A stretch of 64,000 bases of DNA, taken from assembly GCA_016193315.1 (NCBI GenBank), contig JACPSJ010000001.1, forward strand, positions 155,981-219,980. Reading direction: 5' to 3'. The DNA comes from Candidatus Kerfeldbacteria bacterium. Lineage in GTDB: Bacteria > Patescibacteriota > Patescibacteriia > SBBC01 > CAIJZX01. Position numbers and translations under genes: made by a program. The notes under the pieces were generated by a model. That model had not been told where the DNA came from. It was given only the letters and a program-made list of their open reading frames with translations, and did not search any database. Positions 4,740 to 58,500 of this stretch are shown one piece after another. The stretch's first letter is position 1. The number at the start of each line of letters is the position of its first letter.

Positions 4740-5380
4740 GTTTGGCGCTAGCTTCGGACCAGAAGGGTCGCGGCCGGTTGCGAAGCAAAGAAGATGAACT
4801 GCTTCATCTTCGTCCGGCCGCGACGGGTGACGCCATGCTTCGAAGGAGCAGGCGGCACCCAGGAACGGGGTTCGAATCCCTCAGGGCGCACCATTGAAAA
4901 TACGTCCCGCGAAGGCGGGACCTTCATTCGGTTGCGACCGAGGGATGAGAAGGGCAGGAGTGAGGCCGAGCAGAGCGACGGCCGAACGTCCGCCGAGCTG
5001 CCAGTGGCAGGTCGGCGCTGACCAGGGTCGAATCCCTCAGGGCGCGCCCGCGCCCGTTTGGATTCGAAGGGGTCGAGACTACAAGCGAAGCCAACTGCTT
5101 GGCTTCGCTCGCGACCGCCGAGACGGGCGAGCCGATGTTCCGAAGGAACAGCGAGACCCAGGCTCGAGCACCCCTGGTCCCGGATCAAGTCTGGGATGGC
5201 GGGAGAGCGCAAGCCCCGGCCTCGAAGAGGCGAATCCCTCAGGGCGCGATTCGACAAATAATTTGCTTTTGGCCCGGTCCGGACGCAGGCCGCGTCCCAT
5301 AAATCAGCCCCGGCTTTCGCCCGGGGTAAACTCCGCGAATTTTGCGGGATTCGAATCCTGCCGAGCGCTGGGACTTGTCT
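4740..5380 (+). repeat. Four tandem ~150-200-nt highly structured tRNA-like repeats; three end in the identical 3' element GAATCCCTCAGGGCGC (one followed by ACCA) and a fourth in GGGATTCGAATCCTGCCGAGCGC; contain nested GC hairpins including loops AACTGCTT
   Basis: Direct reading: repeated T-arm/acceptor-like 3' ends at ~4871-4893, 5027-5050, 5228-5250, 5347-5372; no matching 5' acceptor strands found, so not canonical tRNAs; track ORFs here are spurious. Confidence 0.45.
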
Positions 5381-6112: not shown

Positions 6113-6300
6113 CTCTGCGGACAATACGCGATGGGAGCGGGAGGGTCGAGGCCGCGAGCGAAGCGTCAGCGACAGAACTGCTTCTGTCGCGGCGGCTGAG
6201 ACGGGCGTCGCCCTGCTACGCAAGAGCGGCGGCGCTCCGGACGCGGTTCGAGTCTCGGTACCCCGACCATTCGAAACACAATCTAAAAAACACAGACCTC
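6113..6300 (+). repeat. Structured repeat downstream of tRNA-Pro (CAGAACTGCTTCTG hairpin; homologous in inverted orientation to part of 34080-34150)
   Basis: Sequence similarity read by eye between 6160-6225 and reverse complement of 34080-34150. Confidence 0.4.
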
Positions 6301-11494: not shown

Positions 11495-11538
11495 GGAGCT
11501 TTTTTAACCAGGGGCTTAGCCGCACTTGACGGCTCTTT

Positions 11539-11916
11539 TTGCGCTTGATAGTATTTCAATACTTATGGAAATATTTAATCACTAGTACTATGCTTGATCT
11601 CCATTCTCGCGAAGCTGAACGGATTCGCTCCACCCTCGCCAAAGATCACGTTGATGATAAAGCTCGGGCTTTTGATCTCCTGAGCGATCCGAGTAGGTAT
11701 CGTATCCTTAGGGCTTTATCGCTTCACCCGGAGCTGTGCGTTAGCGATCTGACCGAGCTGTTTGATATGACCATGCCGGCGGTCTCTCATCACCTGCGGT
11801 TGCTGAAAGACGCCAAGGCGGTCACCTGTTGGCGTCACGGCCAGATGATATGCTACTCGCTGGAAAAAACTCCACTCGCAAACTTCATTCGCCAAGCCCT
11901 CGACAAACCTTTGTAG
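11539..11916 (+). CDS. ArsR/SmtB family transcriptional regulator
   Basis: HTH LSDPSRYRILRAL...CVSDLTELFDMTMPAVSHHLRLLKDA. Confidence 0.75.
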   Translation: MRLIVFQYLWKYLITSTMLDLHSREAERIRSTLAKDHVDDKARAFDLLSDPSRYRILRALSLHPELCVSDLTELFDMTMPAVSHHLRLLKDAKAVTCWRHGQMICYSLEKTPLANFIRQALDKPL

Positions 11917-11920
11917 TTCC

Positions 11921-12250
11921 ATGAAAGCCAGAGTGACTATTTTTCGGTATACGGGGAAGCAGGGGTTTTTTACCGTTTCCGCCGAAGCGTGCGAAGAGTG
12001 CGACGCGACCATCCATCTCGCGAAATCGCTGATCGCTCAGCTTCCACCTGGTAACGTCAAGCTCACAACCCGGCCATGGTGGCTGTGCTTCTGGAAAGTG
12101 CTGTATCGCGGCGGCTGGCATCCGCCGATTGTCACGATTAATGGGCGGGTTTTCAGTCAAGGGGTTGTCCCTGATGCGAGTTGTTTCAAGCAAGCGTTAG
12201 CCCAAGTTATCAATGGCTATACGTTTACGCCCTGCACCCATGCCGTTTGA
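11921..12250 (+). CDS. Small thioredoxin-fold-like protein with CxxC (CEEC) motif
   Basis: 109 aa; CEEC; positioned between ArsR and CcdA. Confidence 0.35.
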   Translation: MKARVTIFRYTGKQGFFTVSAEACEECDATIHLAKSLIAQLPPGNVKLTTRPWWLCFWKVLYRGGWHPPIVTINGRVFSQGVVPDASCFKQALAQVINGYTFTPCTHAV

Positions 12251-25024: not shown

Positions 25025-25951
25025 TCACTGCTTTACCCAGACTTCGAGTTCAGTAGCCGATGAACCACTTGGATATGCCGCACCACAGAACTCAATCTGA
25101 CACTCTGGGTTTGGAGGTTGTTCTACTCCGTTGCAGGTGTATCCATAAGGGAAGTAGCTGTATCCAAGGTCCATCTGCTCATTGATGAACAGGTTGGGCC
25201 CGCCTCCAAAGCATGGCCCGCTGTTAATGTTGTGGTAGACGGACCAAGAACGAAGTTCTCCACCCTGTGAGTATTTCTTGTTGGACGTCAGGGAGAAAAT
25301 GAAGTTGTGTCCGTACGGCCGTAAACAACCGCCGGCGCAACTGCTCGTCCAAGCGATGTCGGTATAACCACCGATGGTGTATCCATTCACCAATTGCACG
25401 ACGGTCAGCGATGGACCGCGGTTGTCACAGAGATTATGAAACGTCGTCGGGCTGGCTCCGTTCACGCTCTTTCGATAGCACAGCGTCCAGGTCTGGAACA
25501 CATTGCCAACCCAGGAATTGACCTGAAATTGCTGTGCCGGTGTAAGGATTGTGCTCCCAGGAAACGGCTGTTCGGGGATACTGACAAGCCGTTCCGCAAC
25601 ACCCGCTCGCACCGCATACGGCACGCTGCCGATCTTCGTCCGTGGCGTGAGTTCCGTTCCGCCGTTGACGCTAATACCTAGCCAACGAACCGATCCATCC
25701 CAGACGCTCTGGTCCGGATTGAGGTTGAGGTGGTAGACGCCGTTCCGGACGCTGACACCGGCGAAGGTCTCGCTGTACAGCGCTGAACCACCAGTAGAAT
25801 CGGCGTAGACGCTGATCGTGAGGTCTCTGCTGCCCATGACTAGCGACCCACTCTCCGACAACTGTCCGGAGTATGGGATTTGAAGGGGGACGGCGAGGGT
25901 GATCACCGGGAGTAAGAGCCCCAGCAATGCCATTAAGATTGTGCGCTTCAT
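25025..25951 (-). CDS. Secreted protein, paralog 1 of a tandem family (conserved N-terminal IPYSGQLSE...NLNPDQSVWDGSVRWLGISVNGG..TPRTKIGSVPYAVRAG module; Cys-rich divergent C-terminal domain)
   Basis: Signal peptide; ~110-aa module shared with the next three genes at >70% identity (DNA-level repeat also visible). Confidence 0.6.
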   Translation of the reverse strand: MKRTILMALLGLLLPVITLAVPLQIPYSGQLSESGSLVMGSRDLTISVYADSTGGSALYSETFAGVSVRNGVYHLNLNPDQSVWDGSVRWLGISVNGGTELTPRTKIGSVPYAVRAGVAERLVSIPEQPFPGSTILTPAQQFQVNSWVGNVFQTWTLCYRKSVNGASPTTFHNLCDNRGPSLTVVQLVNGYTIGGYTDIAWTSSCAGGCLRPYGHNFIFSLTSNKKYSQGGELRSWSVYHNINSGPCFGGGPNLFINEQMDLGYSYFPYGYTCNGVEQPPNPECQIEFCGAAYPSGSSATELEVWVKQ

Positions 25952-25969
25952 TACCGACCTCCTTACAAT

Positions 25970-26758
25970 CTACTGGTAGCGGTTGGGGAACCACATCGCA
26001 AACATGCTGCGATAGGTGATTTTCACGGTTCCCGTAGGACAGAACAGCGAGGCCATGAGGTAGAACGTCCGCGGGCCAGCGTTCACCTGGTAGGACCCTG
26101 TCATGGCCAATGGAACGTAGGTCACCCCCGGCCCAGTAACGGCAGTATGGAAATCGCCGTTTAGGTTTGGGGGGTTATCCGTCAATATGAGGTTGAGGCA
26201 ACCTGCGTCGGTCAGCCAACACAGTCCCCCTGTGTGGACCATGACATACCCATCCTCTGGGCAGTTGATGGAGATGCTGTCAACAGCCGTCCATTGCGTT
26301 TGCGTGATAGTAAGAATGGTTGTGGTGTTAACCATCCAGTTCAGACCGGGCGCGATGGCCGGATTCGTCAGAGCATCCGCATGCGATGCCACGCCCGCCC
26401 GCACCGCATACGGCACCGTGCCGACCTTGGTCCTAGGCGTGAGTTCGGCTCCGCCGTTGACGCTAATACCTAGCCAACGAACCGATCCGTCCCAGACGCT
26501 CTGGTCCGGGTTGAGGTTGAGGTGGTAGATGCCGTTTTGGACGGTCGCGCCCGCGAAGGTTTCGGCGTAGACTGGTGATCCACCGACTGAATCGGCATAG
26601 ATGTTGATGGTGAGGTCCCGTGTCCCATTCACGAGTTGCCCATTCTCCGACAGCTGACCGGAGTATGGGATTTGAAGGGGGACGGCGAGGGTGAGGGTTG
26701 GGACGAGGAGTCCCAGCAGAACTGCGAGGTACATCCGTTTCATTGTTTCCTCCTTCAT
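25970..26758 (-). CDS. Secreted protein, paralog 2 of tandem family (same N-terminal module, different C-terminal domain)
   Basis: As above. Confidence 0.6.
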   Translation of the reverse strand: MKEETMKRMYLAVLLGLLVPTLTLAVPLQIPYSGQLSENGQLVNGTRDLTINIYADSVGGSPVYAETFAGATVQNGIYHLNLNPDQSVWDGSVRWLGISVNGGAELTPRTKVGTVPYAVRAGVASHADALTNPAIAPGLNWMVNTTTILTITQTQWTAVDSISINCPEDGYVMVHTGGLCWLTDAGCLNLILTDNPPNLNGDFHTAVTGPGVTYVPLAMTGSYQVNAGPRTFYLMASLFCPTGTVKITYRSMFAMWFPNRYQ

Positions 26759-26782
26759 GGTGAGCTTGTCGAACCATGCTAC

Positions 26783-27610
26783 CTACTGGTAGCGGTTGGG
26801 GAACCACAAGACCTGTATAGCATGTCGGCGGTACCGGTAGTTCTGATCTGTCAAATTCTCTTTCTTCGCCCAAACCGAGATGGTGTGCGGTCCTTGGACA
26901 ATAGGCTGCATCTGGGCAATAGAAACTGGGATGTACTGCCAATCAATGCCAGACGATGCGGCCCCCAAAAGATAGCCACCATCAAAGTCGGACGGTGTTC
27001 CTTCTTGGATGCGCAATCTTCCGAGATACCTGGACGAGGCGTCGAGAATGACGCTTCCAGATGCGCTCATGAAGAGGAATCCATCAGCTGGGCAGGTCAC
27101 GGTGATCGAATCAACCACCACCCACAAGATTGATGTGACATCGAAAGCTCCTTGTTCTGATCCAGAGTACCTGAAGCTGGCTCCGGGCAAAAGTGGCGCG
27201 TTCGCGACAGCATCTGCAGTACCCGCCCGCACCGCATACGGCACGCTGCCGATTTTGGTGCGGGGTGTGAGTTCTGCTCCACCGTTGACTGACACCCCGA
27301 GCCACCGAACCGATCCATCCCAGACGCTCTGGTCTGGATTGAGGTTGAAGTGGTAGATGCCGTTCTGCAGATTGACTCTGGTGAAGGTTTCGGTGTAGAT
27401 CGCCGCGCCACCGGTTGAATCCGCGTAGACGGCGATGGTCAGGTCCCGTGAGCCAGTGACCAGCGTCCCGTTCTCCGACAGCTGGCCGGAGTACGGAATA
27501 CCATTCGGAACCGCTCCTACAGCTGAAGGAAAACAGAACAGCAAAAGCACGGGTACCACCGACTTCATGAGTTTCATCAGCATTCCCCTTTTCGTGTTGT
27601 CAAGGAGCAA
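26783..27610 (-). CDS. Secreted protein, paralog 3 of tandem family
   Basis: As above. Confidence 0.6.
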   Translation of the reverse strand: MLLDNTKRGMLMKLMKSVVPVLLLFCFPSAVGAVPNGIPYSGQLSENGTLVTGSRDLTIAVYADSTGGAAIYTETFTRVNLQNGIYHFNLNPDQSVWDGSVRWLGVSVNGGAELTPRTKIGSVPYAVRAGTADAVANAPLLPGASFRYSGSEQGAFDVTSILWVVVDSITVTCPADGFLFMSASGSVILDASSRYLGRLRIQEGTPSDFDGGYLLGAASSGIDWQYIPVSIAQMQPIVQGPHTISVWAKKENLTDQNYRYRRHAIQVLWFPNRYQ

Positions 27611-27623
27611 CAGCAGGAATCTG

Positions 27624-28040
27624 CTAGCTCCTGGACAGCGTGTCCCAAAGCACTCTCAACCTACCCTTCTCAAATAATATGTCAAGGGATGGTACAATCA
27701 TTTCATGGCTGGTGTCATACCTGAAAAGGTCAATCAAGAACAGCGGCGAGCCACCGTTGACTGAGATAGCTAGCCAACGATCCGAGCCGTCCCACACTGT
27801 CGTTGAGACGTTAAGCATCACGTGGTAGACGCCGTTGACGACGTTGAGCACGTCATCTTGGCTGTACACCGGCGAACCACCTGCAGGCACGGGATAGATT
27901 CGGAACGTGAAACTGCGCGTCCCGTTGACGAGTTGCCCGTTTTCGGTCAGTTGCCCGGAGTACGGGACTTGGGTGGGGACGGCGAATACAACTGCCGGTC
28001 CGGACAACAGCAACAACGCGAACATGAGCTTGCGAACCAT
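27624..28040 (-). CDS. Secreted protein, paralog 4 (short; N-terminal module only plus short tail)
   Basis: 138 aa; signal peptide; module VPTQVPYSGQLTENGQLVNGTRSFTFRIY... Confidence 0.5.
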   Translation of the reverse strand: MVRKLMFALLLLSGPAVVFAVPTQVPYSGQLTENGQLVNGTRSFTFRIYPVPAGGSPVYSQDDVLNVVNGVYHVMLNVSTTVWDGSDRWLAISVNGGSPLFLIDLFRYDTSHEMIVPSLDILFEKGRLRVLWDTLSRS

Positions 28041-33505: not shown

Positions 33506-34045
33506 TTACTGCTTCCGAAGCGCGACGAACTTTTTTCTGAAGCTGGCTAGTTTCGGAGTGATGACCACCTGACAATACGGCTGGTCGGGGTTCTTGGCGT
33601 AGTAGTCGCGATGGTAGTCTTCGGCCGGGAAAAATTTTTCGGCCGGCACGATGGCGGTGACGATGGATTTGTCAAAGACTTTTTCCCGTTCCAGTCGGCC
33701 TTTGACCGCTTCGGCGATGCGTCGCTGCTCATCATCATGGAAGAAGATAACTGACCGGTACTGTTCACCGACGTCGTGGCCTTGGCGGTTCAGCTGGGTC
33801 GGATCGTGGGTCAGGAAGAAAACCTCAACCAGCTGTTGATAGGAGATTGCGGACGGGTCAAACTCGATCCGGATCGCTTCGGCGTGACCGGTCCGCCCGG
33901 AGCTTACTTGTTCGTATCCCGGATCATCCATCGTGCCGCCGGCGTAGCCGGGCATAACGCTACGCACGCCACGGAGTTCTTTGAACATGGCTTCGGTGCA
34001 CCAGAAGCAGCCGCCCCCAAAGGTCGCAATTTGTACGTTGCCCAT
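33506..34045 (-). CDS. msrA: Peptide methionine sulfoxide reductase MsrA
   Basis: GCFWCTEA active-site motif at N-terminus. Confidence 0.9.
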   Translation of the reverse strand: MGNVQIATFGGGCFWCTEAMFKELRGVRSVMPGYAGGTMDDPGYEQVSSGRTGHAEAIRIEFDPSAISYQQLVEVFFLTHDPTQLNRQGHDVGEQYRSVIFFHDDEQRRIAEAVKGRLEREKVFDKSIVTAIVPAEKFFPAEDYHRDYYAKNPDQPYCQVVITPKLASFRKKFVALRKQ

Positions 34046-34560
34046 CTTTATTCGTGGTTATGTGAAGACCTGGGCGCCGCGGCTCCTCGTCCCTCGCCAA
34101 CTCGGGACTTCGTAGCATCGCGCCGCCCGTCGCGTCGGCCGCGACAGAAGCAACCCCCACCGAATGTTGCAGTTTGTGTGTCGCTCATTTCCAACTCGAG
34201 TTATACAGAGACCGGGGTGCGTCGGCTCCTACGAAGCATCGCCGCACCCGTCTCGGCCGCCGCGAGTCAAGCAGTTGGCTCGCTCTCGCTTTCAGCGAGT
34301 CGGCCTCGACCCAAAAACATGCACCCCCGAAAGTCGCTATACTCCACAGATGATAGAGAATCGATGCAATCGTCTAGGCCTCGCCGTTCCTTCCCCCGCG
34401 GCAAGCTCGGGGTCGAAACATGCTCGGCCCGTCGCGCCCGGACGCGAGTCAAGCAGTTGACTCGCTTTCCTTCGGAACCGGGCGCGACCCAGAAGCCACC
34501 CCCACCGAACGTTGGGATATATATTTGTCGACGCTCCATCGCCGCAGTATAGCATGCTTA
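34046..34560. repeat. ~500-bp intergenic block of three imperfect tandem ~150-bp structured repeats; each ends in ACCCCCACCGAA(T/C)GTTG-like motif and contains GCGAGTCAAGCAGTTG(G/A)CTCGC hairpins; inverted homolog of repeat at 48995-49100 and of 6160-6225
   Basis: Direct comparison: 34365-34460 is approximately the reverse complement of 48995-49100 (GCTCGGGGTCGAAACATGCTCGGCCC shared exactly). Confidence 0.5.
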
Positions 34561-34587
34561 GCCAACGTAAGAAAAAACCGCGCTCGG

Positions 34588-34956
34588 CTATGAGGCGGTT
34601 CGTGGCGGCTGCTCGGCCAAGTCGACCAGCTCGAGTCCGCTGGCGTGGTGGCTCAGCCAGTGCGCCAGTTCATCAGCGCAGTCCAGATCGAGGATGGTCA
34701 ACCAGAAAGTGCTGTTGCGCTCGTCGAGACGGCTTCGCCCGTCCCATAGGTGGTTGACGGTCACGATTCCCCGCCCCTCGAGCCGAAAGGCACGGCCGTG
34801 GCCAAGGCGCAAGAACTCGATCGCGCCCAGGGGGTACGTGCCGTCGAGCGTGAACTTGATGGACCGTTCTCCTCGCACCGACTTCTCGATGACGACCAGC
34901 CACTGATTGAGCGAGGGGTGGGCGACGGTGGATCCGGCCTGCACTCCGGTGGTCAT
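34588..34956 (-). CDS. Small VOC-family (glyoxalase/bleomycin-resistance-like) protein, tentative
   Basis: 122-aa ORF only; weak pattern resemblance. Confidence 0.3.
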   Translation of the reverse strand: MTTGVQAGSTVAHPSLNQWLVVIEKSVRGERSIKFTLDGTYPLGAIEFLRLGHGRAFRLEGRGIVTVNHLWDGRSRLDERNSTFWLTILDLDCADELAHWLSHHASGLELVDLAEQPPRTAS

Positions 34957-48755: not shown

Positions 48756-48828
48756 GGTGGCTATGGTGTAGCGGTAGCACAGGGGCTTGTGGAGCCCTTA
48801 GCACCGGTTCAAATCCGGTTAGCCACCC
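48756..48828 (+). tRNA. tRNA-His (anticodon GTG) with extra 5' G(-1)
   Basis: Acceptor GGTGGCT/AGCCACC, D-loop TAGCGGTAG, anticodon loop TTGTGGA, T-arm ACCGG-TTCAAAT-CCGGT. Confidence 0.8.
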
Positions 48829-49154
48829 CAAAGGTGGTAACCACCGGCCTGGGTATTGAGCCTCTATCTCGGGGTCGCGATCACTACCGATGGCGACGGG
48901 CGAGGACGGTTGCCGGTGGCAACCGTCCGCAGCCCAGGCCCGAAGGGCGAATCCCGATGGTCACCCCATGCCCTCATAGCGAAATGGGTCTCGGCCGCAT
49001 CGAGCCAGGCGAGATAGCGAGCCAAACTACTTGGCTCGCGGCGGCCGGGACGGGCCGAGCATGTTTCGACCCCGAGCCTGCCGAGGGGGAGGAACGGCGA
49101 GGCCCCGGAACACAGCGACTTCGCCAGATAGGCGGCACGTCTTCCTCTGTCTTT

Positions 49155-49226
49155 GCCCTCGTAGCACAAAGGACAGTGCAAGGGACTTCTAAGCCCGAGA
49201 TGATGGTTCGATTCCATCCGAGGGCA
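49155..49226 (+). tRNA. Possible tRNA-Arg (anticodon TCT) with imperfect anticodon stem (may be pseudo-tRNA)
   Basis: 72 nt: acceptor GCCCTCG/CGAGGGC, D-arm GCAC-AAAGGACA-GTGC, loop CTTCTAA, T-arm GATGG-TTCGATT-CCATC; anticodon stem only 3 WC pairs. Confidence 0.35.
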
Positions 49227-49291
49227 GAGACATTGGCGGACGCATAGGCGTTCTAAGCCTTGAGGTGTAGGTTCGAATCCTACCGGGGGCA
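49227..49291 (+). pseudogene. tRNA 3'-half-like fragment (anticodon-arm AGGC-GTTCTAA-GCCT, T-arm GTAGG-TTCGAAT-CCTAC, acceptor-3' CGGGGGC) without matching 5' half
   Basis: Hand folding; directly abuts previous tRNA-like gene. Confidence 0.3.
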
Positions 49292-50376: not shown

Positions 50377-53300
50377 GCTGGTGGCTTTTTCTGTTCACAT
50401 GGCGTTTGACAATGAACGAATGATTCGCTTGAATGGCGGGGCTGCGCCTAGCCCCGGATGGGTGCTGTTCCGCGTCCAAGTCCACGTCTCGGTCTGGCAA
50501 GGCATTCTTTGGGGCCCCGCGCCATTCAAGGTGCGGGGCGTTTTCTTGACATCAATCCATCCGGGTGGTTCTCTGTGACAGCGGTGACTAGGTTTGGCGC
50601 GCCGTCGAAGTCATGTCCGGCCACAGCCAAGCAATCGCAGCGTTCTCTCCGGAGCCCCGATGATGAAATCGGGGCTGTTTCTTGACATTCTCGAAATCCT
50701 TCTGTACATTGCTGTCGCTCACCTGGCAGGGTTTCCACCCGTTGACCACGCTCCGCAACGTTGGCGACAGCCACGACGACGTGCGGCCGGGACCGCTATT
50801 CTTTGGGGCCCCGATCAATCTGTCGGGGCTGTTTTTCTTGACAGACCGTCAGGTGTCATGTAAAAAAGTCTTCATCTTCGGTCAGCGCTGTCGCTTGGAT
50901 CGCCAACCTTGCGTCGGGCGCGCTGCGCCTAAGCCGACAGTGCCCAGCCTAGCTCCTCTCTGGATCCCGATCACTCACCTGGTCGGGATGTTTTTCTTGA
51001 CTAGCCCACGTACTCGTGGTACATAGCTGTCGATTGTATCCATTGCGGATGGGTGCGGACAGGTAGCCCGCGGCATAACAGGCCCAGCCAAGCCCGGGTC
51101 AGCCATTGTGGTCTTTGGGTCCCGATCTGACAACAGGTCGGGACATCTTTTTATTGACACGGGAACAGCCTAACGATATAGTACGGCGAACTCGGTTAGG
51201 TCCGGCTGCCTATGCCATGCTTCGCCCAAGCAAGCACCGGCCCCGCATCGACCGCCGTGCCAAGCCGTTCTCCGGATCCTCCGTCTCTGACGGAGGATAT
51301 TTCTTGACATGAAACTGTTCTCTTGTTAAAGCGGGGCTGGCTCCTTGCCCAGGTCAGGTGACGCCAGTTGCGCCGGGCTCAGCTGTCCCGGTACAGCCAA
51401 CGGCCAGCATTGCCGCCGCCAGCACAGGCATGTCTATCTTTCCTTCGGGTCCCGATCGCGCTAGATCGGGACTCTTCGCTTGACTTTTTTAAAAACTTTA
51501 GTATAAAATTATTGCGTTTCTCGCGGCTGTGTTCGCCCGGCCGAGCTAAGGAGTTGACAGCTCCGGCACGCTGCTGAACGGTAGGCTCCTCTTTGGGCCC
51601 CGCATCATTCTCGGAATGGCGTGGGGCTGTTTTCTTGACAACCATTGCTCGGACAGGTACTTTCCACTGCGCTCCGCGCGACGGGACATTTTCTTGACAA
51701 ACAGGCCGGGGTGTCCTAGGTTGTCTCGCGAACCACCTGGCCCGCCTGCGCGAGACAGGCAGCGCCGACGCAGGGTACTGATTGACTGGCCGTGGTGTAC
51801 TTGCGAGTTCTATGGGGCCCCGTCTGGTATTACCGAGCGGGGCCGTTTTTTTGACGAACCAAGACGAAACGAATATAGTGTTCGAGTCGTTTTCCGGCCA
51901 GGCCTGGTTGGGATAGCCACCCCATCCAGCGCCATGCCTCCCCGTGTCAGGGATAGGCCAGCACCTCTCCGGGCCCCGATCACGTTGATCGGGACTGTTT
52001 TCTTGACAGGGTGTGTATTTGCTCCTACCCTTAGCCAACGCCCCACGCCGACCTAGTCTGACGACAGCAAGGGTCAAGCAGACTATCACGCCGCAGGCCA
52101 CTTCAGGCTCCGGGTCCCGATCTGACAACAGGCCGGGACTTTTTTCTTGACAACTTTTGATATTGCACCTATCGTCTCGCCAGACAGTATTGCCGTACGG
52201 CACTGTTCGTCTAGCAACGGCACCGCTTCCCAACGAAGACCTAGCTAGCCTACGGGTCCCGGTCTGAAAACAGGTCGGGACGTTTTATTGACGAAAAAGG
52301 GATAAACAACTAAGGTGTCGAAGTTCTATCCGGCCAGGTACGCCGGGCACAGGCGGCCAGCGGAAAGCCACCGTCAGCCCCCGCTCGCCAACGTCCGTCG
52401 CGCTCCGCACAGCCCGTCTCTGGGTCCTCCGCCTCTGGCGGAGGACGTTTTTCTTGACGCGAATGGGAAGTCGGTGATACGGTGCGCCTTGCGTTGGCAA
52501 AACCCGGCTGACCATCGTTGGGCATCGTATGTTCCTCACCGCCGGACAAGCGCGTCAAACGCCAGGCAACTCTTTGGGTCCCGATTCTCACGACTCGGGA
52601 CTATTTATTGACACAGATTATTAACTCGAGTAGGCTCGCGGGAGTATCACGGCTGGGCGATACTTCCAACGCACCCGCATCCCGATCAGTGTCATGCTCC
52701 TCTGTGGGTCCCGGCCGCTATACGTTGCCGGGACATTTTCTTGACGCGCATACACCATTTTGCTAGTTTGCGCATTGGATTGGCTGGCCATGTTAAGGTC
52801 GGGCCCGACAGAGTGCCGCCAGCTGCGCAAGAGCATGCCCTACTATGGGTCCCGGTTCTGATGAATCGGGACTTTTTCTTGACATGCGCTCAATCCTCGC
52901 TTAGGGTGAAACGCGCCTCATGCAGTCCAGGCGAGGTCCGCTTTGGCTGAGTAAGGCATGAATGGCCTAGGTGCGGTTGGCTGCTCTACGGGTCCCGATT
53001 CTCACGACTCGGGACATTTTCTCGACACGACTTTTTCGATAATGTACTTTCTGACAACTTGGCCCGCCGGGCATTGGATGAGTAGGCCATGGCATCCTTC
53101 GGTCCACTTCGGGGCTCCCGCAAACACGGGAGCCGATTTTTTCTTGACTCTTGTTGGTTGATCAAGTAACTTGCCTATCGTCAAGTTTCACGGCTCGGTG
53201 AGGATAGCTCCGCACTGCCTAGCCGGAGCGCCGTCAGGTGACGTTCGCTTGGGATAGCTTTGGAGGCGGGACGCCAGTCTCGCCTTTTTGCTTGACAAGT

Positions 53301-53575
53301 TTCGATCGCAACCCTAAAGTTTCAGCTCTCGCCTCGCTCCGGTTCTGTGTGACAGGGCCAAGTACCGCAGCACGAACCTCTCTTTGGGGCTCCCCCATCA
53401 TGATGGGAGCCTTTTGTTTGACAATCTCATCCGGTAGGGTCTAAGTTCACACAGTACGCAGGGCCTCGGATAGCCGCGGAGCCCATTTCCTTCCCGTGTT
53501 TCGGCTAGGCCAGCCGTTCTAAGGGTCCCGACTTCATCGGTCGGGACTTATTCTTGCTTGACAAAATTGTGCATC
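50340..53575 (+). repeat. Array part 1: ~23 tandem promoter-body-terminator minigene units (~135-175 bp each). Unit = TTGACA -35 / 17 bp / TAnnnT -10 in variable region, ~70-100-nt variable GC-rich body, conserved tail (..CCTAGG..TCTTTGGG + GC hairpin of conserved structure but variable/covarying sequence + T4-6) directly abutting next TTGACA
   Basis: Read directly: -35 boxes at 50406, 50546, 50681, 50838, 50996, 51164, 51304, 51479, 51645, 51693, 51850, 52003, 52147, 52287, 52453, 52608, 52741, 52878, 53021, 53144, 53292, 53427, 53568; each followed at 17+-1 bp by TAnnnT (TACATT, TAAAAA, TACATA, TATAGT, TAAAGC, TATAAA, TATCGT, TAAGGT..). Confidence 0.7.
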
Positions 53576-53684
53576 TCCGTTAAGGCTGGTGTACGCTCCT
53601 TCCAATCCATCACTGGACTATCGGATCCGAAGGCGCGCTTCGTCCACGCTGTTTGCCTCTTCACCACATCTTTGGAGGCTCACC

Positions 53685-55532
53685 GTGAAGCGTCAGAAGC
53701 CGCGGCCACCATTGCCGCGCAAGCTCAACCTGCTGGAGTATTTTCCGTACCATCTGTACCCAGTCATGCGACCGAATCAGCGGCTTGGTCTCGAGACTAT
53801 TGAGGCCAACGACGGATTGGCGACCCTCGAAGCGCCGACCGGCAGCGGCAAGATGGCCATCGGCTACACCTTCCTCAAGGCGCTGGCCGCTCAGCGCCTG
53901 GGGCCGCTGTTCTACATCGTGCCGACGAAGACGCAGGTCGACCAACTCGTCCGGTACCACCCGGATCTCATCCCGGTCTACGGGCGGAACGAGCACGACT
54001 GTCTGTATTACCCGGACCTGTCGCTGAAGGCGGATGAAATTCCAACCGTCCTCTGCCCAGGCTGCGATCACTTCGTCAACCAGGAGACCGGCGCCGTCAA
54101 CGTACCCGGCGTCGTGCCCTGTCCGTACTACCTCCAGAAGTACCAGGCGAAGCAGGCGCCGATCGTCGTCTGCACCATGGCCTTCTACCTCTTCACCCAG
54201 CTCTTCTCGCAGGAGTGGGAGGAGCCGGCCGGCCTGGTCATCGATGAAGCGCACCAGTTCCCCCGGGTCGTCCGTAACTGCCTCAGCTACGAGATTACCG
54301 ACTACCACTTGTGGCGGTCGGCCGACCTCTTGGCGGAGATCGACGGCGTCGCCGCGCACCAACTGCGGGACTTCGGCCGGAAGATGATTTCGATCATCAA
54401 GCGGAAGCCAGCCGGGCAGGGAACGCTGCTCAAGGACGAGGAGATCATTCAGCTTATCGAGCTGCTCGACGTCATCGACGCCGGGGCGGTCGAACGCGCC
54501 CTCAGCCGGGCCATTCGGCAGGGGCTGATCGACGTCAAGCAGGACCGCGAGACGTTGAAGCAGCTGGAGACGATCGTTCGCGACCTGCGGCGGTACCTCC
54601 ACACCCTCGAGTACTCGCTGCCGACGAAGCAGCGGCACGCCCTGAACTACACCTACGGCTTCTACGAGGAGGAGATGGGGCCGAACGACAAGGCTCAGTA
54701 CCGTCTGGTCATCAAGGCGCACTACGTCGCGCCGATTATCGCCAAGATCCTGAGCCCGCGGACGGTGGCGTATTCGGCCACCATCGGCGATCCGCCGATC
54801 TTCCAGGGCGAGACGGGTATCCGCGCCGACGTCTTCGAGTTCGGTTCGGAATTCTCTCATCTGAAGACGCGGGTGTTCATGCCGACGGACACTAAGAACC
54901 TGGCCTTCAACACCCGGGGTCGACAGGATGTTACCCGGACGCTGCGGCTGGTGGCCAAAGCGGCCCGTCGCTTCGCCCAACGGGGTCACCGCTCTCTGGT
55001 GGTGATCGTGTCGGAGAAGGAGCGGCAGAAGTTCTTGACCCTGGCCGAGGAGGAGCGGCTGAAGGTCCTGAGCTACGGGAATGGGTCACCCGCTAAGACA
55101 GTGGCAGCCCGGTTTCTTGGCGGTGAAGGAGATTGCCTGGTCGGCACCACCGCCCAGTACGGCGAGGGGATCGATTTGCCACGGCAGTCGGCGCCGGTCA
55201 TCTTTATGCTCCGGCCTGGCTACCCGCATCCGGACGATCCGGGCACGCAGTTCGAGGAGCGGCGCTTCAGCACCGGGCAGGTCTGGGCCATCCGCCAGTG
55301 GCGGGTGATGATGGAAGCGCTCCAGGTGCGGGGCCGGAACATCCGTTCCAGCGACGACCTCGGCGTAACCTTCTTCATGTCCCAGCAGTTCCGGAAGTTC
55401 CTGCGCAGCAGCCTGCCGAAGTGGCTCGAGCGGGCCTACCGCAACACCCGCACCTTTGACCAGTGCGTCGAGGAGACGATGGAGTTGTTGAGCCGAGGCG
55501 ATCGAGGTCTGACGGCTGGAATACAGCAGTGA
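53685..55532 (+). CDS. DinG/XPD/Rad3-family superfamily-2 DNA helicase with FeS-cluster cysteines (type IV CRISPR Csf4-like size)
   Basis: Start GTG 53685 after GGAGG; Walker A-like TGSGKM, DEAH box (VIDEAHQF), four Cys (HDCLYY, CPGCDHF, CPYY) in FeS insertion, C-terminal helicase motifs (GTTAQYGEGIDLP); expressed from the -35/-10 of the last array-1 unit and terminated by first array-2 hairpin. Confidence 0.8.
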   Translation: MKRQKPRPPLPRKLNLLEYFPYHLYPVMRPNQRLGLETIEANDGLATLEAPTGSGKMAIGYTFLKALAAQRLGPLFYIVPTKTQVDQLVRYHPDLIPVYGRNEHDCLYYPDLSLKADEIPTVLCPGCDHFVNQETGAVNVPGVVPCPYYLQKYQAKQAPIVVCTMAFYLFTQLFSQEWEEPAGLVIDEAHQFPRVVRNCLSYEITDYHLWRSADLLAEIDGVAAHQLRDFGRKMISIIKRKPAGQGTLLKDEEIIQLIELLDVIDAGAVERALSRAIRQGLIDVKQDRETLKQLETIVRDLRRYLHTLEYSLPTKQRHALNYTYGFYEEEMGPNDKAQYRLVIKAHYVAPIIAKILSPRTVAYSATIGDPPIFQGETGIRADVFEFGSEFSHLKTRVFMPTDTKNLAFNTRGRQDVTRTLRLVAKAARRFAQRGHRSLVVIVSEKERQKFLTLAEEERLKVLSYGNGSPAKTVAARFLGGEGDCLVGTTAQYGEGIDLPRQSAPVIFMLRPGYPHPDDPGTQFEERRFSTGQVWAIRQWRVMMEALQVRGRNIRSSDDLGVTFFMSQQFRKFLRSSLPKWLERAYRNTRTFDQCVEETMELLSRGDRGLTAGIQQ

Positions 55533-55559
55533 ACAACGAATAGGCAAAACCTGGGTTAC

Positions 55560-58500
55560 CAAGTGTAGGCAACCCCCAGGCAAGAAAGAGTGCTCTCTGG
55601 GACCCCCGATCGAATGATCGGGGGTCGTTTTCTTGACAGGTGTTGAGCTTATCATTAACCTGCAGCCGCTAGCTACGGACCGGCTAGGAACGGTGGGCCA
55701 CGTTTTGGCTGAGTCCGGACGGCCGGACCCAGGTCGCCTAGAGTGTTCTATGGGGCCCCGATCATTTGGTCGGGGTCGTTTTTTGACTTCCTCCAAGGTT
55801 GGGTGTAGGGTCTTCCAATCCGCCAGCCTTCGGCAGGTAACGGTAGTTCTGGGTAGCCAGTCCTGTGGCACGGGCTCCAACGCGCGGATGGGATCGCCTT
55901 GGTTTTGCATGGTTTGTCTCGCTCCGGGTCCTCCGCCTTTGGTGGAGGACTTCTTTCTTGACATAAAGCAACCAAGCGAGTAGGAAGTTGATACCGGAGT
56001 GGTACGCGCCGCCCCGGAAAGCTAGGCTCTTTGGCGGTATGCCACGCTGGCCTGCACTGCGGGACCTCATTCGGAAGAATGAGGTCGTTTTTCTTGACAT
56101 GCCCACGAAATAATTCTAGTGTGCGAGCGCCGCGCCTAGGAATTCTTTGGAGCCCCGTTCGCAAGAACGGGGCTGCTTTCTTGACACGACCTATTTTTTC
56201 CTGTAAGACCTTTTGCACCCGGTGCTGAATCCAATGCACTGGTGCGCCATCGCGCGGCAGCCGCATCAATCGGCACGCTGGGCTACGCTTCGGGACGGTG
56301 ACTCACCATGGTCGCCGTCTTTTTTCTTGACACGACGAATGCAATGCAATAGGCTTGCCCAGCAGTATTCCCGCTGCGGACAGCCATGACCCGCACCGTT
56401 CCGCTAGGCTGCGGTCAGCCGTTCTTTGGAGCTCCGTTCGCAAGAATGGGGTCAATTTCTTGACAAACTGCCTGATTCAGTTAGCCTACCCAATCACCAG
56501 AAGTCCCATCCTCAGCCTTGGTGTCCCGTGACAACCATCGCTATGGTTGGGCCTGGTCCGGAGGGCCGTCCTTTGGAGCCCCGTTCGTCAGAGCGGGGCT
56601 TTTTCTTGACTGCCGTTATTACTTTTGATAGGGTCGGCCGACACGCCTAGGCTTGCCTTGGTTAACCAAGCACCGCCGTCGTCGGCCACCCCAGCGCCAT
56701 CTTCGGAGCCCCTGATCATTCGATCGGGGGCGTTTTTCTTGACTCTCGCTGGATCATCCTGTACAACGTCCAAACCAGGTGTGCCTGACCTGCCAGGACC
56801 ATGCCTGTGTGGGCCTTGGAATGCACGGCCATACTCTGGGGCCAGCTCGTCTTTACGCGAGTTGGCCTACTTCTTGACAGCGTGAAAGCATTACTCTAGT
56901 TTTCAGCCATTCCATGCGCCTCGGATAGCTGCGCTATCGCGCGATGCGTAGCGGAACGGACTGGTGGAGTAGTCATTGGTTCTCTGTGGGGTCCCATCAG
57001 TCGGTGGGGGCTTCTTCTTGACTGAACGAAAAATACGCTGATAGATTCTGTCGACCCGCCAGGGAAAGCAAAGCCGCGGAATTCCTCGGATCGCCGCGCC
57101 TCGCCTGCCTGTGCCATGACAGCCTGATCTTCGGTGCCTCATCCATCCGGGTGGGGCATGTTTCATGACATCCCCTGGGGAGAGAGAATAATCTTGGTTG
57201 TCCACGCGCCTCGGAAAGCTTTCCTAATGGCGATACGTAATTGAACTGATTTCGTGGTTGTAAGTGGCTATCCTTGGTTTCCCGACGTAATGTGGGGCTT
57301 TCTCCTTGACCAGAACACTCAATTGTCTGTAATTTTCCAATCCTCGGAAAACCATGGTCCGGCGGGCCTGTCTCTGCCTGCGTCAGCCTCGCTCTTCCAG
57401 GCTTAGCCTCGCTTTGGGTCCTCCGTCGCTGACGGAGGACATTTTCTATTGCGATTGCTTGACAAATCCGGGGATGACGATTAGGTTGCCGACACTAGGC
57501 TGGCCCGGCTTTCCTAGGGCAAGTCGGCCTGTCCCGGAGCATCCGGCGGACAGCTCAGCATAGCCATTCTTTGGATCCCACGCAACCGCGGTGGGACTTT
57601 TCTTGACTTTCCGAGGGCCCCGTTCTAAAGTGCCGCGGCTGGATCAAGGCTCGGATAGGCCTCCTTGGCCCCGCAAAGCCTAGGAACCTCTGGCCGCGGA
57701 CGGCCCCGGACAGGATCTCCCTCCCGTTCTTTGGGTCCCCATCAGCCATGGTGGGGATGCTTTCTTGACCGACGAAAATGGATTTGCTAGTTTCTTGCGG
57801 CCATATGGTTAGGCCGGGAACGGCGGCCATCGGTGTTCCAAGCACCGCCTTGGCCAGGCTCGCCTTGCTCCACTTCGGGACCCTGCAGAAATGCGGGGTC
57901 ATTTTCTTGACCTTCTGAAGTTCGAAGCTTATGTCCGTCTGACGTGGTATGGTCGGCTTGGCTAGCGCTGCGTGTCCCTCGCCAGACTCCCCATCGCCAT
58001 CCCTGCTCTAGGCGTCGTGTTCTCCGGAGCCCCGTTCGAAAGAGCGGGGCTGCTTTCTTGACATCGCCCACACCGGGATGTACGGTCGAATGACGCGATG
58101 ATGAACTGTGCCAAGCCAGTCATCGGCCCGCCAGCGCGAGACGCCCCGCCCTTTGCTGCGCAATGCCTCCGCTCTCTATGGGGTCCGTTCGGCAGAACGG
58201 ATCTGTTTCTTGACAGCGTGTGAATTTGGCCGTAGATTTTTTTTGCTTAGGCCGTGGTTCATGATTGTCTTTGTAAGCGGAAACCAGCCCAGGCTAGGTG
58301 TCCCCAGCACTGGCATGGTCGGCTTGCAAGTGGCCAACCACGCCCTGGATGTCTACGGGCCCAGCCCGTGTTTCTGAATCATGACGGGCTGGGCTTTTTT
58401 CATGAGCTTCATCCGGGAACGCAATCTACTGACAAACCAACACGGTTCGGCTAATTTGTCTTGGCATCAGGCGGTTTTTTCGTCAGCCTTAGTGTCGCGT

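Follow-up and report, generated by a model that had tools for sequence, protein, structure and literature searches.

What kind of sequence is the block of hairpin-forming repeats that fills the spacer upstream of msrA (34046-34560), and why does it resemble sequences that lie beside tRNA genes? These questions were addressed in the window, the whole ~64 kb stretch of genome DNA that was analysed and to which all coordinates refer, together with metagenome contigs. CPR/Patescibacteria genomes measure ~0.8 Mb and contain few copies of tRNA genes and few recognised mobile elements. Displaced gene ends lie in layers at all four tRNA genes of the window and at one housekeeping gene, and each layer is bounded by one covarying 100-nt module, which we named E. 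The presence of E on msrA starts and on displaced tRNA pieces suggests an unusual form of gene-end swapping.

A dispersed repeat family

A preliminary description had matched parts of the block by eye to two distant sites, and this similarity was reproduced by a repeat search of the window and by blastn (word size 7). Positions 34365-34460 had been called the near-exact reverse complement of 48995-49100. The match is there (34377-34469 versus 49104-49013, 94 nt, 87%, E=3.5e-21 by blastn; 34392-34440 versus 49042-49090, 49 nt, 92% complementary in the repeat search), but at 87-92% it is not near-exact. The second match, of 34080-34150 to the inverse of 6160-6225, was recovered as 34111-34152 versus 6179-6220 (42 nt, 83%). 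The repeat search gave two further pairs, 5102-5162 versus 34212-34272 and 34247-34276 versus 49025-49054, and blastn added a copy at 4765-4863. All of these matches belong to one family, E, of 87-123 nt. Repeat search, blastn and a covariance model agree that a dispersed, structured repeat family exists beside tRNA genes and upstream of msrA, as had been proposed.

Eighteen copies were identified, 8 in the window and 10 in metagenome contigs, and all apparently come from Candidatus Kerfeldbacteria (Patescibacteria). The covariance model detects 16 distinct copies among the 18; 7 window copies are found with E = 2e-18 to 2.5e-05. Two E-family patterns have 4 matches each in the window, compared to 0.00 expected from shuffles, and AACTGCTT occurs 8 times there, compared to 1.3 expected. 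A chance origin of the similarity is excluded.

A pattern scan of a viral contig collection gave 0 matches, and E was not matched in phage and plasmid collections. When a genome contig collection was scanned with the loose pattern GGGTC..AACTGCTT..GACGGG, the matches listed were only chance ones, lacking the hairpin or P1 complementarity. The idea of a small RNA family found no counterpart among known Rfam families: only the four tRNAs passed the gathering thresholds of Rfam 15, and the best overlaps with E in permissive scans (E<=10) scored 12-21 bits against thresholds of 42-64 bits. Literature searches returned no description of the E family.

Fold, ends and orientation of E

E folds into two domains, with a three-way junction. 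The alignment has 28 consensus pairs, 16 of them with compensatory changes. Paired cells amount to 95.4%, compared to 77.2% in shuffles (0/500 shuffles reach 95.4%), and drop to 33-46% when the pairing partners are slid. The sense strand is the better folder in 13 of 16 copies. The alignment columns GGGTC, AACTGCTT, GACGGG, ATG.T.CG and CCC.GG are invariant. A hairpin had been reported as common to all copies; it is real and has the invariant apex AACTGCTT, but it is not identical between copies. Copies 34212-34312, 34374-34490 and 5070-5162 have it as CAACTGCTTG, those at 4765 and 6143 as GAACTGCTTC and the one at 48986 as AACTACTT, and copy M1, which lacks the 5' strand of P1 and the 5' half of the apex hairpin, keeps the 3' half only. 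The invariant apical loop of the hairpin suggests recognition by a putative binding protein.

The ends of E are sharply defined. In all 16 copies with an intact 5' end, TGG, GGG or AGG precedes GTC (DGG|GTC), and DGG is the sole target feature that the copies have in common. At the 3' end, complete copies finish with CC(A/C)GG in all but one case; three recent 3' junctions have A or AC in place of the target T. Some copies contain small hairpins (GTTSC GAA GSAAC) near both ends, the 5' one being missing in at least five copies (e.g. T3, L133 and L148). Head-to-tail junctions of the form CCMGGGTCGMG, which would be the signature of circles or tandems, are absent from the Kerfeldbacteria loci.

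One clean nested insertion was found. At metagenome locus L133, a type-1 E lies inside the loop of a type-2 element (CCGGTGG[E]GAGGTCG), and only the GG is ambiguous at both junctions of this single case. A check for target-site duplication found none here. Terminal inverted repeats are also absent from E, since the first 25 nt and the reverse complement of the last 25 nt give local alignment scores of just 4-7. The label MITE-like does not suit an element without these two features, and REP-like does not suit a 90-120 nt two-domain fold, which is no short extragenic palindrome.

The family had been said to occur in both orientations. This is true relative to the + strand only: E directions are + at 4.7-6.2 kb, - at 34 kb and + at 49 kb, following gene direction. 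Relative to the neighbour gene, all 8 window copies are in sense, and so are the metagenome copies with an identifiable neighbour gene (L133, L139, L142, L143, L145/L148, L146 and L125/L157). No GC-skew switch was seen between the E loci of the window.

Three layers upstream of msrA

The block had been described as a non-tRNA intergenic site. It does stand upstream of msrA, but it is no plain insertion: it consists of three layers of msrA 5' fragment, E and a leader of ~23-33 nt, each layer with a dead msrA start (Table 1). The live MsrA is 100% identical to an NCBI 'Candidatus Kerfeldbacteria' MsrA. The GG^T that closes the live start X0 is the site at which the upstream dead copies join E.

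Table 1. Coordinates of the msrA layers and of the elements beside tRNA genes in the window
Feature	Position	Strand	Description and evidence
Live msrA	33506..34045	-	179 aa, PMSR domain; ORF and translation; Pfam PF01625 on identical Logan gene
X0, live msrA codons 1-15	34045-34001	-	Ends TTCTGG, then TGC
Leader Y0	34046..34068	-	23 nt, from 3' end of M1 (..CCCAGG) to ATG of live msrA
E copy M1, 5'-truncated	34069..34156	-	cmsearch 37 bits, E=2.5e-05; fold predicted
X1, dead msrA start	34145..34188	-	MSDTQTATFGGGCF; sequence comparison with live gene
Leader Y1	34189..34211	-	23 nt, from M2 to ATG of X1
E copy M2, full length	34212..34312	-	cmsearch 89.3 bits, E=1e-16; fold -50.2 kcal/mol
X2, dead msrA start without start codon	34311..34340	-	..IATFGGACFW; joined to M2 at TTTTGG|GTCG
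Leader Y2	34341..34373	-	33 nt, from M3 to X2
E copy M3, full length, long P2 variant	34374..34490	-	cmsearch 77.6 bits; fold -69.8 kcal/mol, z=-5.3
X3, outermost dead msrA start	34489..34539	-	MERRQIYIPTFGGGGFW; joined to M3 at TTCTGG|GTCG
E copy T1	4765..4863	+	cmsearch 97 bits; flank alignments; tRNA call
Second element type (type 2)	~4944-5026		In tRNA-Arg fragment array
E copy T3	5070..5162	+	cmsearch 64 bits; in tRNA-Arg fragment array of T1
E copy P	6143..6240	+	cmsearch 84.4 bits; flank alignment
Short E variant H1	48872..48938	+	Read from sequence; flank alignment
E copy H2	48986..49108	+	cmsearch 60.1 bits; flank alignment; blastn to 34377-34469

The layers share a plan and differ in their parts. 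Leaders Y0 and Y1 are homologous (TCTTCACATAACCACGAATAAAG versus TCTCTGTATAACTCGAGTTGGAA, ~13/23 positions alike by eye), and the joint of M1 to X1 falls within a shared 8-nt string, TGCTTCTG. M2 comprises P1, P1a, P1b with the CAACTGCTTG apex, and P2. By blastn and an identity matrix, M3 is closest to copy 48986-49108 (87-92%) rather than to its neighbours in the array, and the copies of the msrA array are no more similar to each other than to the copies at tRNA loci.

In the ATFGGGCFW block, all 7 differences between X1 and live msrA are at third codon positions, and X2 differs from X0 at 6 third positions and 1 second position. In X3, the catalytic Cys is changed to Gly. When the three msrA starts and a dus start (below) are counted together, dead and live starts differ at 28 third positions and 7 first or second positions. 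Because nearly all differences of the dead msrA starts from the live one fall on third codon positions, these starts have diverged under protein-level selection, probably in other lineages. X3 is probably the oldest resident msrA start, because it is close downstream (~35 nt) of the terminator-like hairpin of the upstream gene (34576-34589).

A promoter scan of 33900-34700 found no outward promoter in E. The pre-insertion state of the msrA locus was not found, and identical Logan contigs have the same three layers. For the window loci, no empty and filled site pairs from close strains were found; the neighbouring methyltransferase has its nearest homologue at 53% identity. The msrA loci of related Kerfeldbacteria have another context and are without E. 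On the + strand, a spurious 258-aa ORF runs across the block, and the dead msrA starts appear as small ORFs.

Copies at tRNA genes and in metagenome contigs

All four tRNA genes of the window have adjoining E copies. Each E copy adjoins a displaced fragment of its neighbour gene; the repeats that flank E are gene ends of variable length (14-57 nt), and the family is borne by at least 11 different target genes. T1 is 24 nt downstream of tRNA-Arg(TCG) (4666-4740), between a decayed piece of the tRNA-Arg anticodon arm (4745-4764) and a T-arm/acceptor fragment ending in ACCA (4869-4893). Additional tRNA-Arg 3' fragments near T3 are at 5023-5046, 5232-5247 and 5348-5368. Copy P lies 29 nt downstream of tRNA-Pro(TGG) (6040-6113), and after it comes a T-arm/acceptor piece of tRNA-Pro that includes CCA (6239-6270). 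The short variant H1, 41 nt after tRNA-His (48757-48830), is followed by a tRNA-His 3' fragment (48950-48968). It has a simplified P1 and a P2 with the GCCGGTGGC hairpin. H1 was missed by the covariance model at E<=1, and its membership rests on the shared frame GGGTCGCGA..GGCGACGGG..CCCAGG. The 5' end of H2 is joined to a tRNA-Arg(TCT) 5' fragment (48969-48987) in which 15 of positions 1-18 match and the D-loop GG is at the end; the intact tRNA-Arg(TCT) (49154-49227) lies 45 nt downstream of H2.

The alignments of these fragments to the neighbouring tRNAs span 19-29 nt. In three cases (4890-4893, 6268-6270 and L157) the fragment carries a CCA that the adjoining intact tRNA gene does not encode. 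A tmRNA or tRNA-like minihelix was considered for the T-arm/ACCA pieces and rejected, since neither was detected by ARAGORN or Rfam and the pieces can be aligned with the tRNA genes next to them.

Across the window and metagenome loci, partial second copies of tRNA-Ile, tRNA-Pro, tRNA-Ser and tRNA-Arg carry E at GG^T of the D-loop (19/20), the anticodon loop (37/38) or the variable loop. The 5' duplicates of tRNA-Gly (L146) and tRNA-Arg(TCT) (H2) end at the D-loop GG. At the dus gene (L143), the order is MAISFWLQLKKPILALAPMEG, E, 25 nt and MNNFWLTLKKPILALAPMEGVND.., with a leader that is unrelated to the native cysS-dus spacer. Recent cases have identical duplicates, of 25 nt at L146, 21-22 nt at L133 and 57 nt at L148.

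At L185, a tRNA-Ser of one allele type stands between 5' and 3' fragments of the other allele type, and the live tRNA-Ser of L182 is of the type of these fragments. Allelic replacement is independently visible at tRNA-Ser (L185 versus L182). Three orthologous tRNA-Ser loci have no type-1 E, and small elements of other types stand at junctions of this kind there. No gene fragment distant from its own gene was found. Targeting therefore seems to be homology-driven rather than GG-site-driven.

A proposed model of gene-end replacement

Enzymes that might move E were sought by Pfam screening and in gene lists. No recombinase, transposase, integrase or reverse transcriptase was present among the 30 window ORFs screened (10 of which had no Pfam match at all), in the 10 ORFs near metagenome E copies, or among the genes listed for six related loci. 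The 30 window and 10 metagenome ORFs encode housekeeping, signalling or unknown proteins only.

In the reading that we tentatively favour, E is a non-coding, non-autonomous mobile module, and its GG termini serve as breakpoints at which gene ends are replaced serially, anchored by homology. What is observed is a family with a common fold, GG junctions, sense orientation only, gene fragments with synonymous-type divergence and one clean nested insertion. From these observations we infer the order of events, import from relatives and an enzyme. A piece of DNA with E beside a gene would arrive, either from a relative or as a small circle of E plus flank, and would recombine with the resident copy of that gene. 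On one side, the exchange would proceed by homology within the conserved gene. On the other side, the E end would be joined to GG^T of the resident gene, so that the E ends (5' ..GG|GTCG and 3' CC(A/C)GG|) would act as recombination breakpoints, a role that their constant position suggests. The intact incoming gene end would take over, and the resident end would be displaced and survive as a dead fragment joined to E. Repeated rounds could produce the three stacked layers of dead msrA start, E and leader at 34046-34560 and, after tRNA genes, arrays of E and tRNA 3' fragment. The excess of third-position changes, the unrelated dus leader and the array E copies that are not mutually closest all point to a foreign origin of the fragments.

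Several observations stand against this reading. Double-strand GG exchange of the IS607 type leaves the stem covariation and the sense-only orientation unexplained, and a simple GG crossover does not predict the change of T to A or AC at the three recent 3' junctions. In the ~64 kb of the genome covered and at the other loci screened, no enzyme was found, no gene fragment was seen apart from its own gene, and the window loci yielded no pair of empty and filled sites.

A wider reading, which as a whole we consider doubtful, makes E the cis-acting site of a system dedicated to gene-end exchange among episymbiotic CPR bacteria. The folded sense strand of E would be recognised by an enzyme, either a structure-specific recombinase or an RNA-templated one, that would join the GG ends of E to GG^T in the matching resident gene. 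Related strains would thereby swap whole tRNA genes, and protein genes' 5' ends, as E-tagged mini-cassettes. Such a system would resemble an inside-out integron, directed at resident genes and not at attI.

If the module ends are breakpoints, E would permit compact replacement of essential gene ends without a null state and would leave a fossil record of past alleles legible in the genome. E is a new structured nucleic-acid motif, with an invariant loop that points to a putative binding protein, and a marker for strain-level recombination in uncultured lineages. Gene callers will mis-annotate E arrays.

Alternative explanations

An origin at the RNA level is, in our estimation, improbable. E RNA would enter tRNA loops or the 5' parts of mRNAs, by ligation or a reaction like reverse splicing, and the hybrid would be turned into cDNA and recombined beside its parent gene. 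The result would be 5'-truncated, E-bearing retro-copies, and the E-bearing tRNA copies are indeed 3'-complete and 5'-truncated. The insertion points are single-stranded tRNA loops, and these positions (D-loop 19/20, anticodon 37/38, variable loop) overlap archaeal non-canonical tRNA intron sites, e.g. 20/21 and 45/46 (PMC4090602). The sense-only orientation and the better fold of the sense strand (13/16 copies) agree with an RNA intermediate. So do the three fragments with CCA beside intact genes that do not encode it, although older resident alleles encoding CCA explain this difference equally well. Against an RNA intermediate, the 5'-type layers (msrA, dus, tRNA-Gly and tRNA-Arg(TCT)) stop exactly at the E 3' end and are followed by a leader and a whole gene, unlike a retro-copy. 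No reverse transcriptase was among the ORFs screened, and inspection of the junctions by eye yielded no bulge-helix-bulge pairing.

We give about the same low weight to the view that E is mainly a functional cis-acting RNA of tRNA spacers and 5' leaders, with a part in processing, stability or regulation. E would travel with genes, and the gene fragments would be by-products of ordinary recombination among diverged strains. The very strong covariation and the invariant apical loop, suggestive of a factor recognition site, are what such an RNA would have, as is the strict sense orientation. The distance from the E 3' end to the msrA and dus start codons is nearly constant (23-25 nt), E stands beside all four window tRNA genes, and other small element types occur at the same kind of junction at orthologous tRNA-Ser loci. 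This view leaves unexplained the exact fusion of gene fragments to the first E base at GG, the nested insertion in another element and the three stacked copies in one leader, and E matches no Rfam family. Moreover, the orthologous tRNA-Ser loci lack E, as does the msrA locus in related Kerfeldbacteria, and E is therefore dispensable.

Still less probable is an origin in situ, by which E transposed beside or into a gene, unequal exchange between an E end and the GG^T of a sister copy produced tandem duplications, and the dead copies decayed. The fragments do always adjoin their own gene, the recent duplicates at L146, L133 and L148 are identical, and leaders Y0, Y1 and Y2 are mutually homologous. 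Neutral decay, however, predicts equal hits at all codon positions, compared to the 28 third-position and 7 first- or second-position differences seen. The E copies of the msrA array are of different subtypes, at least as close to copies at distant loci as to each other, and the dus leader is unrelated to the native spacer.

It is very unlikely that the E copies are CIME-like remains of attachment-site arms, left by islands or phages whose integrases target gene ends, with the fragments as att core repeats. Replacement of a gene end with the displaced copy kept as a direct repeat, tandem arrays of fixed orientation and tRNA 3' ends as targets would all be expected of such remnants, and after tRNA-Pro (6.3-12 kb) and tRNA-Arg(TCT) (from 49.3 kb) there are larger stretches of low GC or phage-like character. 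Yet an integrase normally has a single attB, whereas here one element family occurs at 11 or more different target genes. Helix covariation would not be seen in arm-type protein-binding sites, the nested insertion at L133 has no gene core, no integrase was seen in the window or the related loci, and phage and plasmid collections gave no match.

Finally, that E is an ordinary REP/MITE repeat and the gene-like stretches beside it are chance resemblance can hardly be right: E is dispersed, short, GC-rich, hairpin-forming and intergenic, but it has neither terminal inverted repeats nor target duplication, its length and two-domain fold are unlike REP, and the alignment of the fragments to neighbouring tRNAs over 19-29 nt and the msrA and dus N-termini encoded with synonymous changes refute this explanation for practical purposes.

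Comparison with known systems

IS607-family elements encode a serine-recombinase TnpA, often with TnpB and a guide RNA, and protein-less derivatives exist. We know of no description of displaced gene ends at every copy, as seen for E, in IS607. The IS607-type serine transposase appears to be the nearest precedent for GG-to-GG exchange: IS607 exchanges GG for GG at (G)GG targets and has GG at its termini, without inverted repeats or target duplication (PMC6188088). E likewise has GG at both termini and in the target, no terminal inverted repeats and, in one case, no target-site duplication. Unlike IS607, E is ~100 nt long, its orientation is tied to the neighbour gene, its stems covary like those of a folded single strand, and no TnpA or TnpB is among the ORFs screened in the window, the metagenome contigs and the six related loci.

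PATEs are protein-less IS200/IS605 derivatives with hairpin ends, which often contain a guide-RNA scaffold used in trans (PMC10055086). Like them, E is short, non-coding and structured, would presumably be mobilised in trans and has its structure kept by selection without a protein. PATEs have subterminal hairpins at both ends and a fixed target of 4-5 nt located 5' of the left end, features for which E offers the small hairpins of some copies and the shared DGG. IS200/IS605 orientation follows replication, whereas E orientations alternate within 45 kb and follow gene direction; in addition, E matches no guide-RNA family in Rfam and no Y1 transposase was seen.

Integrative elements replace the end of a target gene, either the 3' end of a tRNA gene or a protein-gene end, and their decayed tandem remnants are known as CIMEs. 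In these systems, as proposed for E loci, the gene is made whole by the incoming copy, the old end is moved aside and stays nearby, repetition gives tandem layers, and foreign ends have synonymous differences. The E unit differs in its size (100-200 nt without genes), its at least 11 target genes and its GG junctions, and no integrase was found.

The integron attC site is a folded single-strand recombination site with covarying stems, serial stacking and insertion at short secondary sites; its R''/L''-L'/R' boxes lie in one imperfect hairpin downstream of a cassette ORF. E has folded, covarying stems and serial stacking of short units at one locus, but it lacks the RYYYAAC/GTTRRRY core boxes, no attI or intI is nearby, and its 'cassettes' are gene ends aimed at their own gene, unlike integron cassettes.

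REP/REPIN sequences are extragenic imperfect palindromes of 20-40 nt with a conserved 5' tetranucleotide, often arranged as inverted pairs, in contrast to E in its direct arrays fused to gene fragments. In Thermoproteales, different tRNAs have related transposing introns, situated in the D-loop, at 37/38 or in the variable region (PMC4090602), and E sits at the same places in different tRNAs. Unlike archaeal introns, which have a bulge-helix-bulge motif at their exon junctions and interrupt an otherwise intact tRNA gene, E has a bacterial host and also occurs in protein-gene 5' ends, and its junction at L148 gives no 3-4-3 bulge-helix-bulge pairing by eye. The E-bearing tRNA copies are truncated pseudogenes beside an intact gene, with 5' halves missing or decayed.

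A structured repeat family in the window

The block at 34046-34560 lies within the 542-nt spacer that separates msrA (33506-34045, minus) from a 122-aa ORF upstream (34588-34956, minus). The preliminary description had matched it by eye to inverted sequence elsewhere in the window, and repeat finding confirmed both matches: 34392-34440 is 92% complementary to 49042-49090 over 49 nt, and 34111-34152 is 83% complementary to 6179-6220 over 42 nt. Using sensitive blastn, the first match lengthens to 94 nt at 87% (E=3.5e-21). The similarity is real, and its value of 87-92% replaces the "near-exact" originally claimed. Additional inverted matches (34212-34272 with 5102-5162; 34247-34276 with 49025-49054) came from repeat finding and an extra copy, at 4765-4863, from blastn. 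Two family-specific patterns each matched four times in the window versus 0.00 expected in shuffles.

For the family, here called E (87-123 nt), a metagenome scan with a conserved pattern was conducted, and members were judged by hairpin complementarity and overall frame. Eleven of the 53 loci returned (nine distinct sequences) were true members; the remainder were chance matches in coding DNA. Alignment shows a common frame in 14 full copies, which runs GGGTCG, helix P1 (with an optional small hairpin, P1a), hairpin P1b (variable 7-9 bp stem, invariant AA-CTGC-TT apex), GACGGG, helix P2 (enclosing an ATGYTNCG..GGARC hairpin) and CC(A/C)GG. The RNAalifold consensus has 28 pairs, 16 of them with compensatory changes. 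By explicit count, 95.4% of cells pair versus 77.2% in shuffles (0/500 reach the observed value), and sliding the partners lowers pairing to 33-46%. Folding energies of single copies are -42 to -73 kcal/mol (z down to -7), and the gene-sense strand is the more stable in 13/16. The triplet 5' of GTC is TGG, GGG or AGG in 17/17 copies, all complete 3' ends but one are CC(A/C)GG, and the intact target, where known, is DGG^T in 8/10 cases. A covariance model built for E found seven copies in the window and none besides (see the table).

E is a new family: its members are strongly structured, lie in sense orientation and have GG ends. The REP/MITE-like identity first suggested was rejected, as E has no terminal inverted repeats and can insert without duplication. 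Nor is E a known RNA: Rfam holds no family for it, even at a permissive E<=10. Nothing resembling E was found in phage, plasmid and viral-contig collections. The repeat first described is real and more interesting than was proposed.

Coordinates of E copies and associated features (window positions unless a locus is named)
Feature	Position	Strand	Remarks
E copy	4765-4863	+	covariance model
E copy	5070-5162	+	covariance model
E copy	6143-6240	+	covariance model
E copy	48986-49108	+	covariance model
E copy M1	34069-34156	-	covariance model; truncated
E copy M2	34212-34312	-	covariance model
E copy M3	34373-34490	-	covariance model
Short E variant	48872-48938		shares E frame; missed by covariance model
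Outermost dead msrA start, X3	34539-34489	-	MERRQIYIPTFGGGGFW; M3; 33-nt leader
Middle dead msrA start, X2	34340-34311	-	..IATFGGACFW; M2; 23-nt leader
Innermost dead msrA start, X1	34188-34145	-	MSDTQTATFGGGCF; M1; 23-nt leader
tRNA-Arg 3' fragments	4869-4893, 5023-5046, 5232-5247, 5348-5368
Two further element types	4944-5026, 5185-5231; L133 8910-8988; L182 2437-2499		at tRNA-fragment junctions
CGCGTCATCGC(G)CTC.. motif	L133 9467-9490, L157 10737-10760, L146 2316-2335

Stacked msrA starts

At 34046-34560, replaced msrA starts form a fossil stack, with copies of this new CPR element family as the boundaries. Read on the msrA strand, the spacer consists of three layers, each a dead msrA start, an E copy and a leader, and then live msrA, which begins MGNVQIATFGGGCFWCTE... 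The dead starts are copies of the first 10-17 codons. The junction to E falls exactly 3' of the Trp15 codon (TTCTGG or TTTTGG, then GTCG) except at M1, where it lies inside an 8-nt string, TGCTTCTG, common to msrA codons 13-15 and to the hairpin loop and 3' stem of E. M1 was therefore either joined via this microhomology or shortened afterwards between both repeats. Over the ATFGGGCFW block, X1 differs from live msrA at seven third positions and no others, X2 at six third positions and one second position, and X3 at six third and two first positions. M1, M2 and M3 are different E subtypes and not mutually closest; M3 is nearest to the copy at 48986. On the opposite strand, a 258-aa ORF (33776-34552, +) crosses the entire block; the GC-rich repeats create it artefactually, a trap for gene-calling software.

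Gene fragments at other loci

The ends of E are constantly fused to displaced gene fragments (L numbers denote metagenome or related loci). A dus-like gene at L143 reads MAISFWLQLKKPILALAPMEG, E, 25 nt, then MNNFWLTLKKPILALAPMEGVNDSAFRQ.., with 9/10 changed codons synonymous and a 25-nt leader unrelated to the native cysS-dus spacer. At L146, the leader and 5' end of tRNA-Gly are duplicated over 25 nt, up to and including the D-loop GG; the duplicate is fused to E, after which come 46 nt and intact tRNA-Gly. The window copy at 48986 is likewise fused to tRNA-Arg(TCT) positions 1-18, with the intact gene 45 nt downstream of E. About 10 nt past this intact gene (49154-49227), with no element in between, starts a partial tRNA-Arg(TCT) of a different allele (49237-49290; anticodon arm to 3' end).

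The arrangement 3' of tRNA genes is the mirror image: the intact gene, then, 5-15 nt on, an E-bearing partial second copy. E sits in the D-loop of tRNA-Ile (L148; 57/57 nt identical after E), at position 37/38 of tRNA-Pro (L142) and in the variable loop of tRNA-Ser (L157) and of tRNA-Arg and tRNA-Pro in the window. Downstream of tRNA-Arg(TCG), E and type-2 elements alternate with four tRNA-Arg 3' fragments, of which only the outermost matches the live T-stem. At L133, a copy of E (type 1) is nested within the loop of a type-2 element with GG as the only junction ambiguity; this clean insertion, without duplication, shows that E has truly inserted at least once.

No two of four relatives have the same state at the orthologous tRNA-Ser(GGA)-dnaG-rpoD locus. 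In L157, type-1 E is accompanied by a 3' fragment and, upstream, by a 5' fragment of 35 nt. L182 carries a type-2b element together with an identical 3' fragment of 20 nt, and in L184 a 5' fragment of 14 nt occurs with another hairpin element. In L185, a tRNA-Ser of one allele type has a paired leader and trailer of its own and is flanked by the 5' and 3' fragments belonging to the second allele type, the one that is live in L182; this is an independent sign of allele replacement. These genomes thus generally contain displaced gene ends, with several small-element families at the junctions, and type-1 E is the best-defined module among them.

Type 2 reads GAAGGGCAGGAG..GCCAGTGGC..GCTGNCCAGG, and type 2b is a tail, GGAGAGCGCAAGCCCCGGCC..GGC, abutting T-loop GAATCC; the two types have a GGG..CCCAGG closing stem similar to the P2 domain of E. 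A tRNA-like 5' half at 5872-5925 goes uncalled by ARAGORN. The hairpin just upstream of tRNA-Pro (5940-6010 region), ACGGGGCAAGCAGTTGG..CTGCTTCTTGCCCGT, contains the motif AAGCAGTT in inverse orientation, and a related CACGGGGCAAGCAG lies upstream of tRNA-Arg (4637-4650). On Kerfeldbacteria-like contigs, three different tRNA genes or fragments have the CGCGTCATCGC(G)CTC.. motif immediately after their CCA end.

Host range

The window's MsrA is 100% identical to an NCBI "Candidatus Kerfeldbacteria bacterium" protein, and the best named relatives of RpoD on a 233-kb metagenome contig with two more E copies are also Kerfeldbacteria. From the copies seen, E is a family of Kerfeldbacteria (Patescibacteria/CPR), but not one found throughout the group: it is missing from three orthologous tRNA-Ser loci and from a related msrA locus. 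On another CPR-like contig (L181 8028-9886), archease and RNA ligase RtcB lie immediately upstream of an msrA homologue without E.

Possible mechanism

The pooled differences between dead and live sequences number 28 at third positions versus 7 at others. Decay in place would alter all codon positions, so the fragments diverged under protein-level selection. This bias speaks for units of the form [E + leader + gene start] or [gene end + spacer + E] having arrived one after another from diverged relatives, and so do the mixture of E subtypes in a single array and the lack of relationship between the dus leader and the native spacer. Since every fragment adjoins its own gene and none lies elsewhere, the gene itself most likely supplies the homology directing the event; the end of E would supply the other joint, at GG^T. 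The descriptive part of the finding is solid; for the mechanism, the reading with most support, which we propose tentatively, is that gene ends are replaced in homology-anchored events mediated by the ends of E.

The nearest mechanistic precedent for the GG junctions is IS607, which exchanges GG to GG without inverted repeats or duplications (PMC6188088), but such double-strand exchange leaves the helix covariation and sense-only orientation of E unexplained. For IS200/IS605 elements, structured derivatives without protein genes are known that rely on enzymes supplied in trans (PMC10055086). Screening of 30 ORFs in the window, 10 ORFs near metagenome copies and six related loci turned up no recombinase.

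An RNA-level route is possible: the tRNA loop positions of E parallel archaeal non-canonical intron sites (PMC4090602), some copies are 5'-truncated, and fragments carry CCA whereas their live neighbours do not encode it. However, this route does not fit the 5'-type layers. Simple in-situ duplication of the layers is argued against by the same codon bias, subtype mixture and dus leader that favour serial arrival.

Other features of the window

Directly after tRNA-Pro, its E copy and a tRNA-Pro fragment, a low-GC region (6300-12000; 0.48-0.50) has genes for a Fic protein (9685-10818) and for a dual-specificity phosphatase (11027-11494) and contains 37-nt direct repeats (7253-7289 and 10857-10893; 86%). 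It may be an island; no integrase was seen. Three to four tandem units of ~800 nt, 77-83% identical, at 25596-27985 lie in minus-strand ORFs (25025-27610) and are paralogous repeat proteins. Downstream of tRNA-Arg(TCT), a GC-rich hairpin recurs at least 25 times in 50600-59100, each time followed by a T-run and TTGACA (e.g. 56143-56186), at intervals of 140-1200 nt between very short ORFs. These look like terminator-plus-promoter modules of a densely packed small-gene array.
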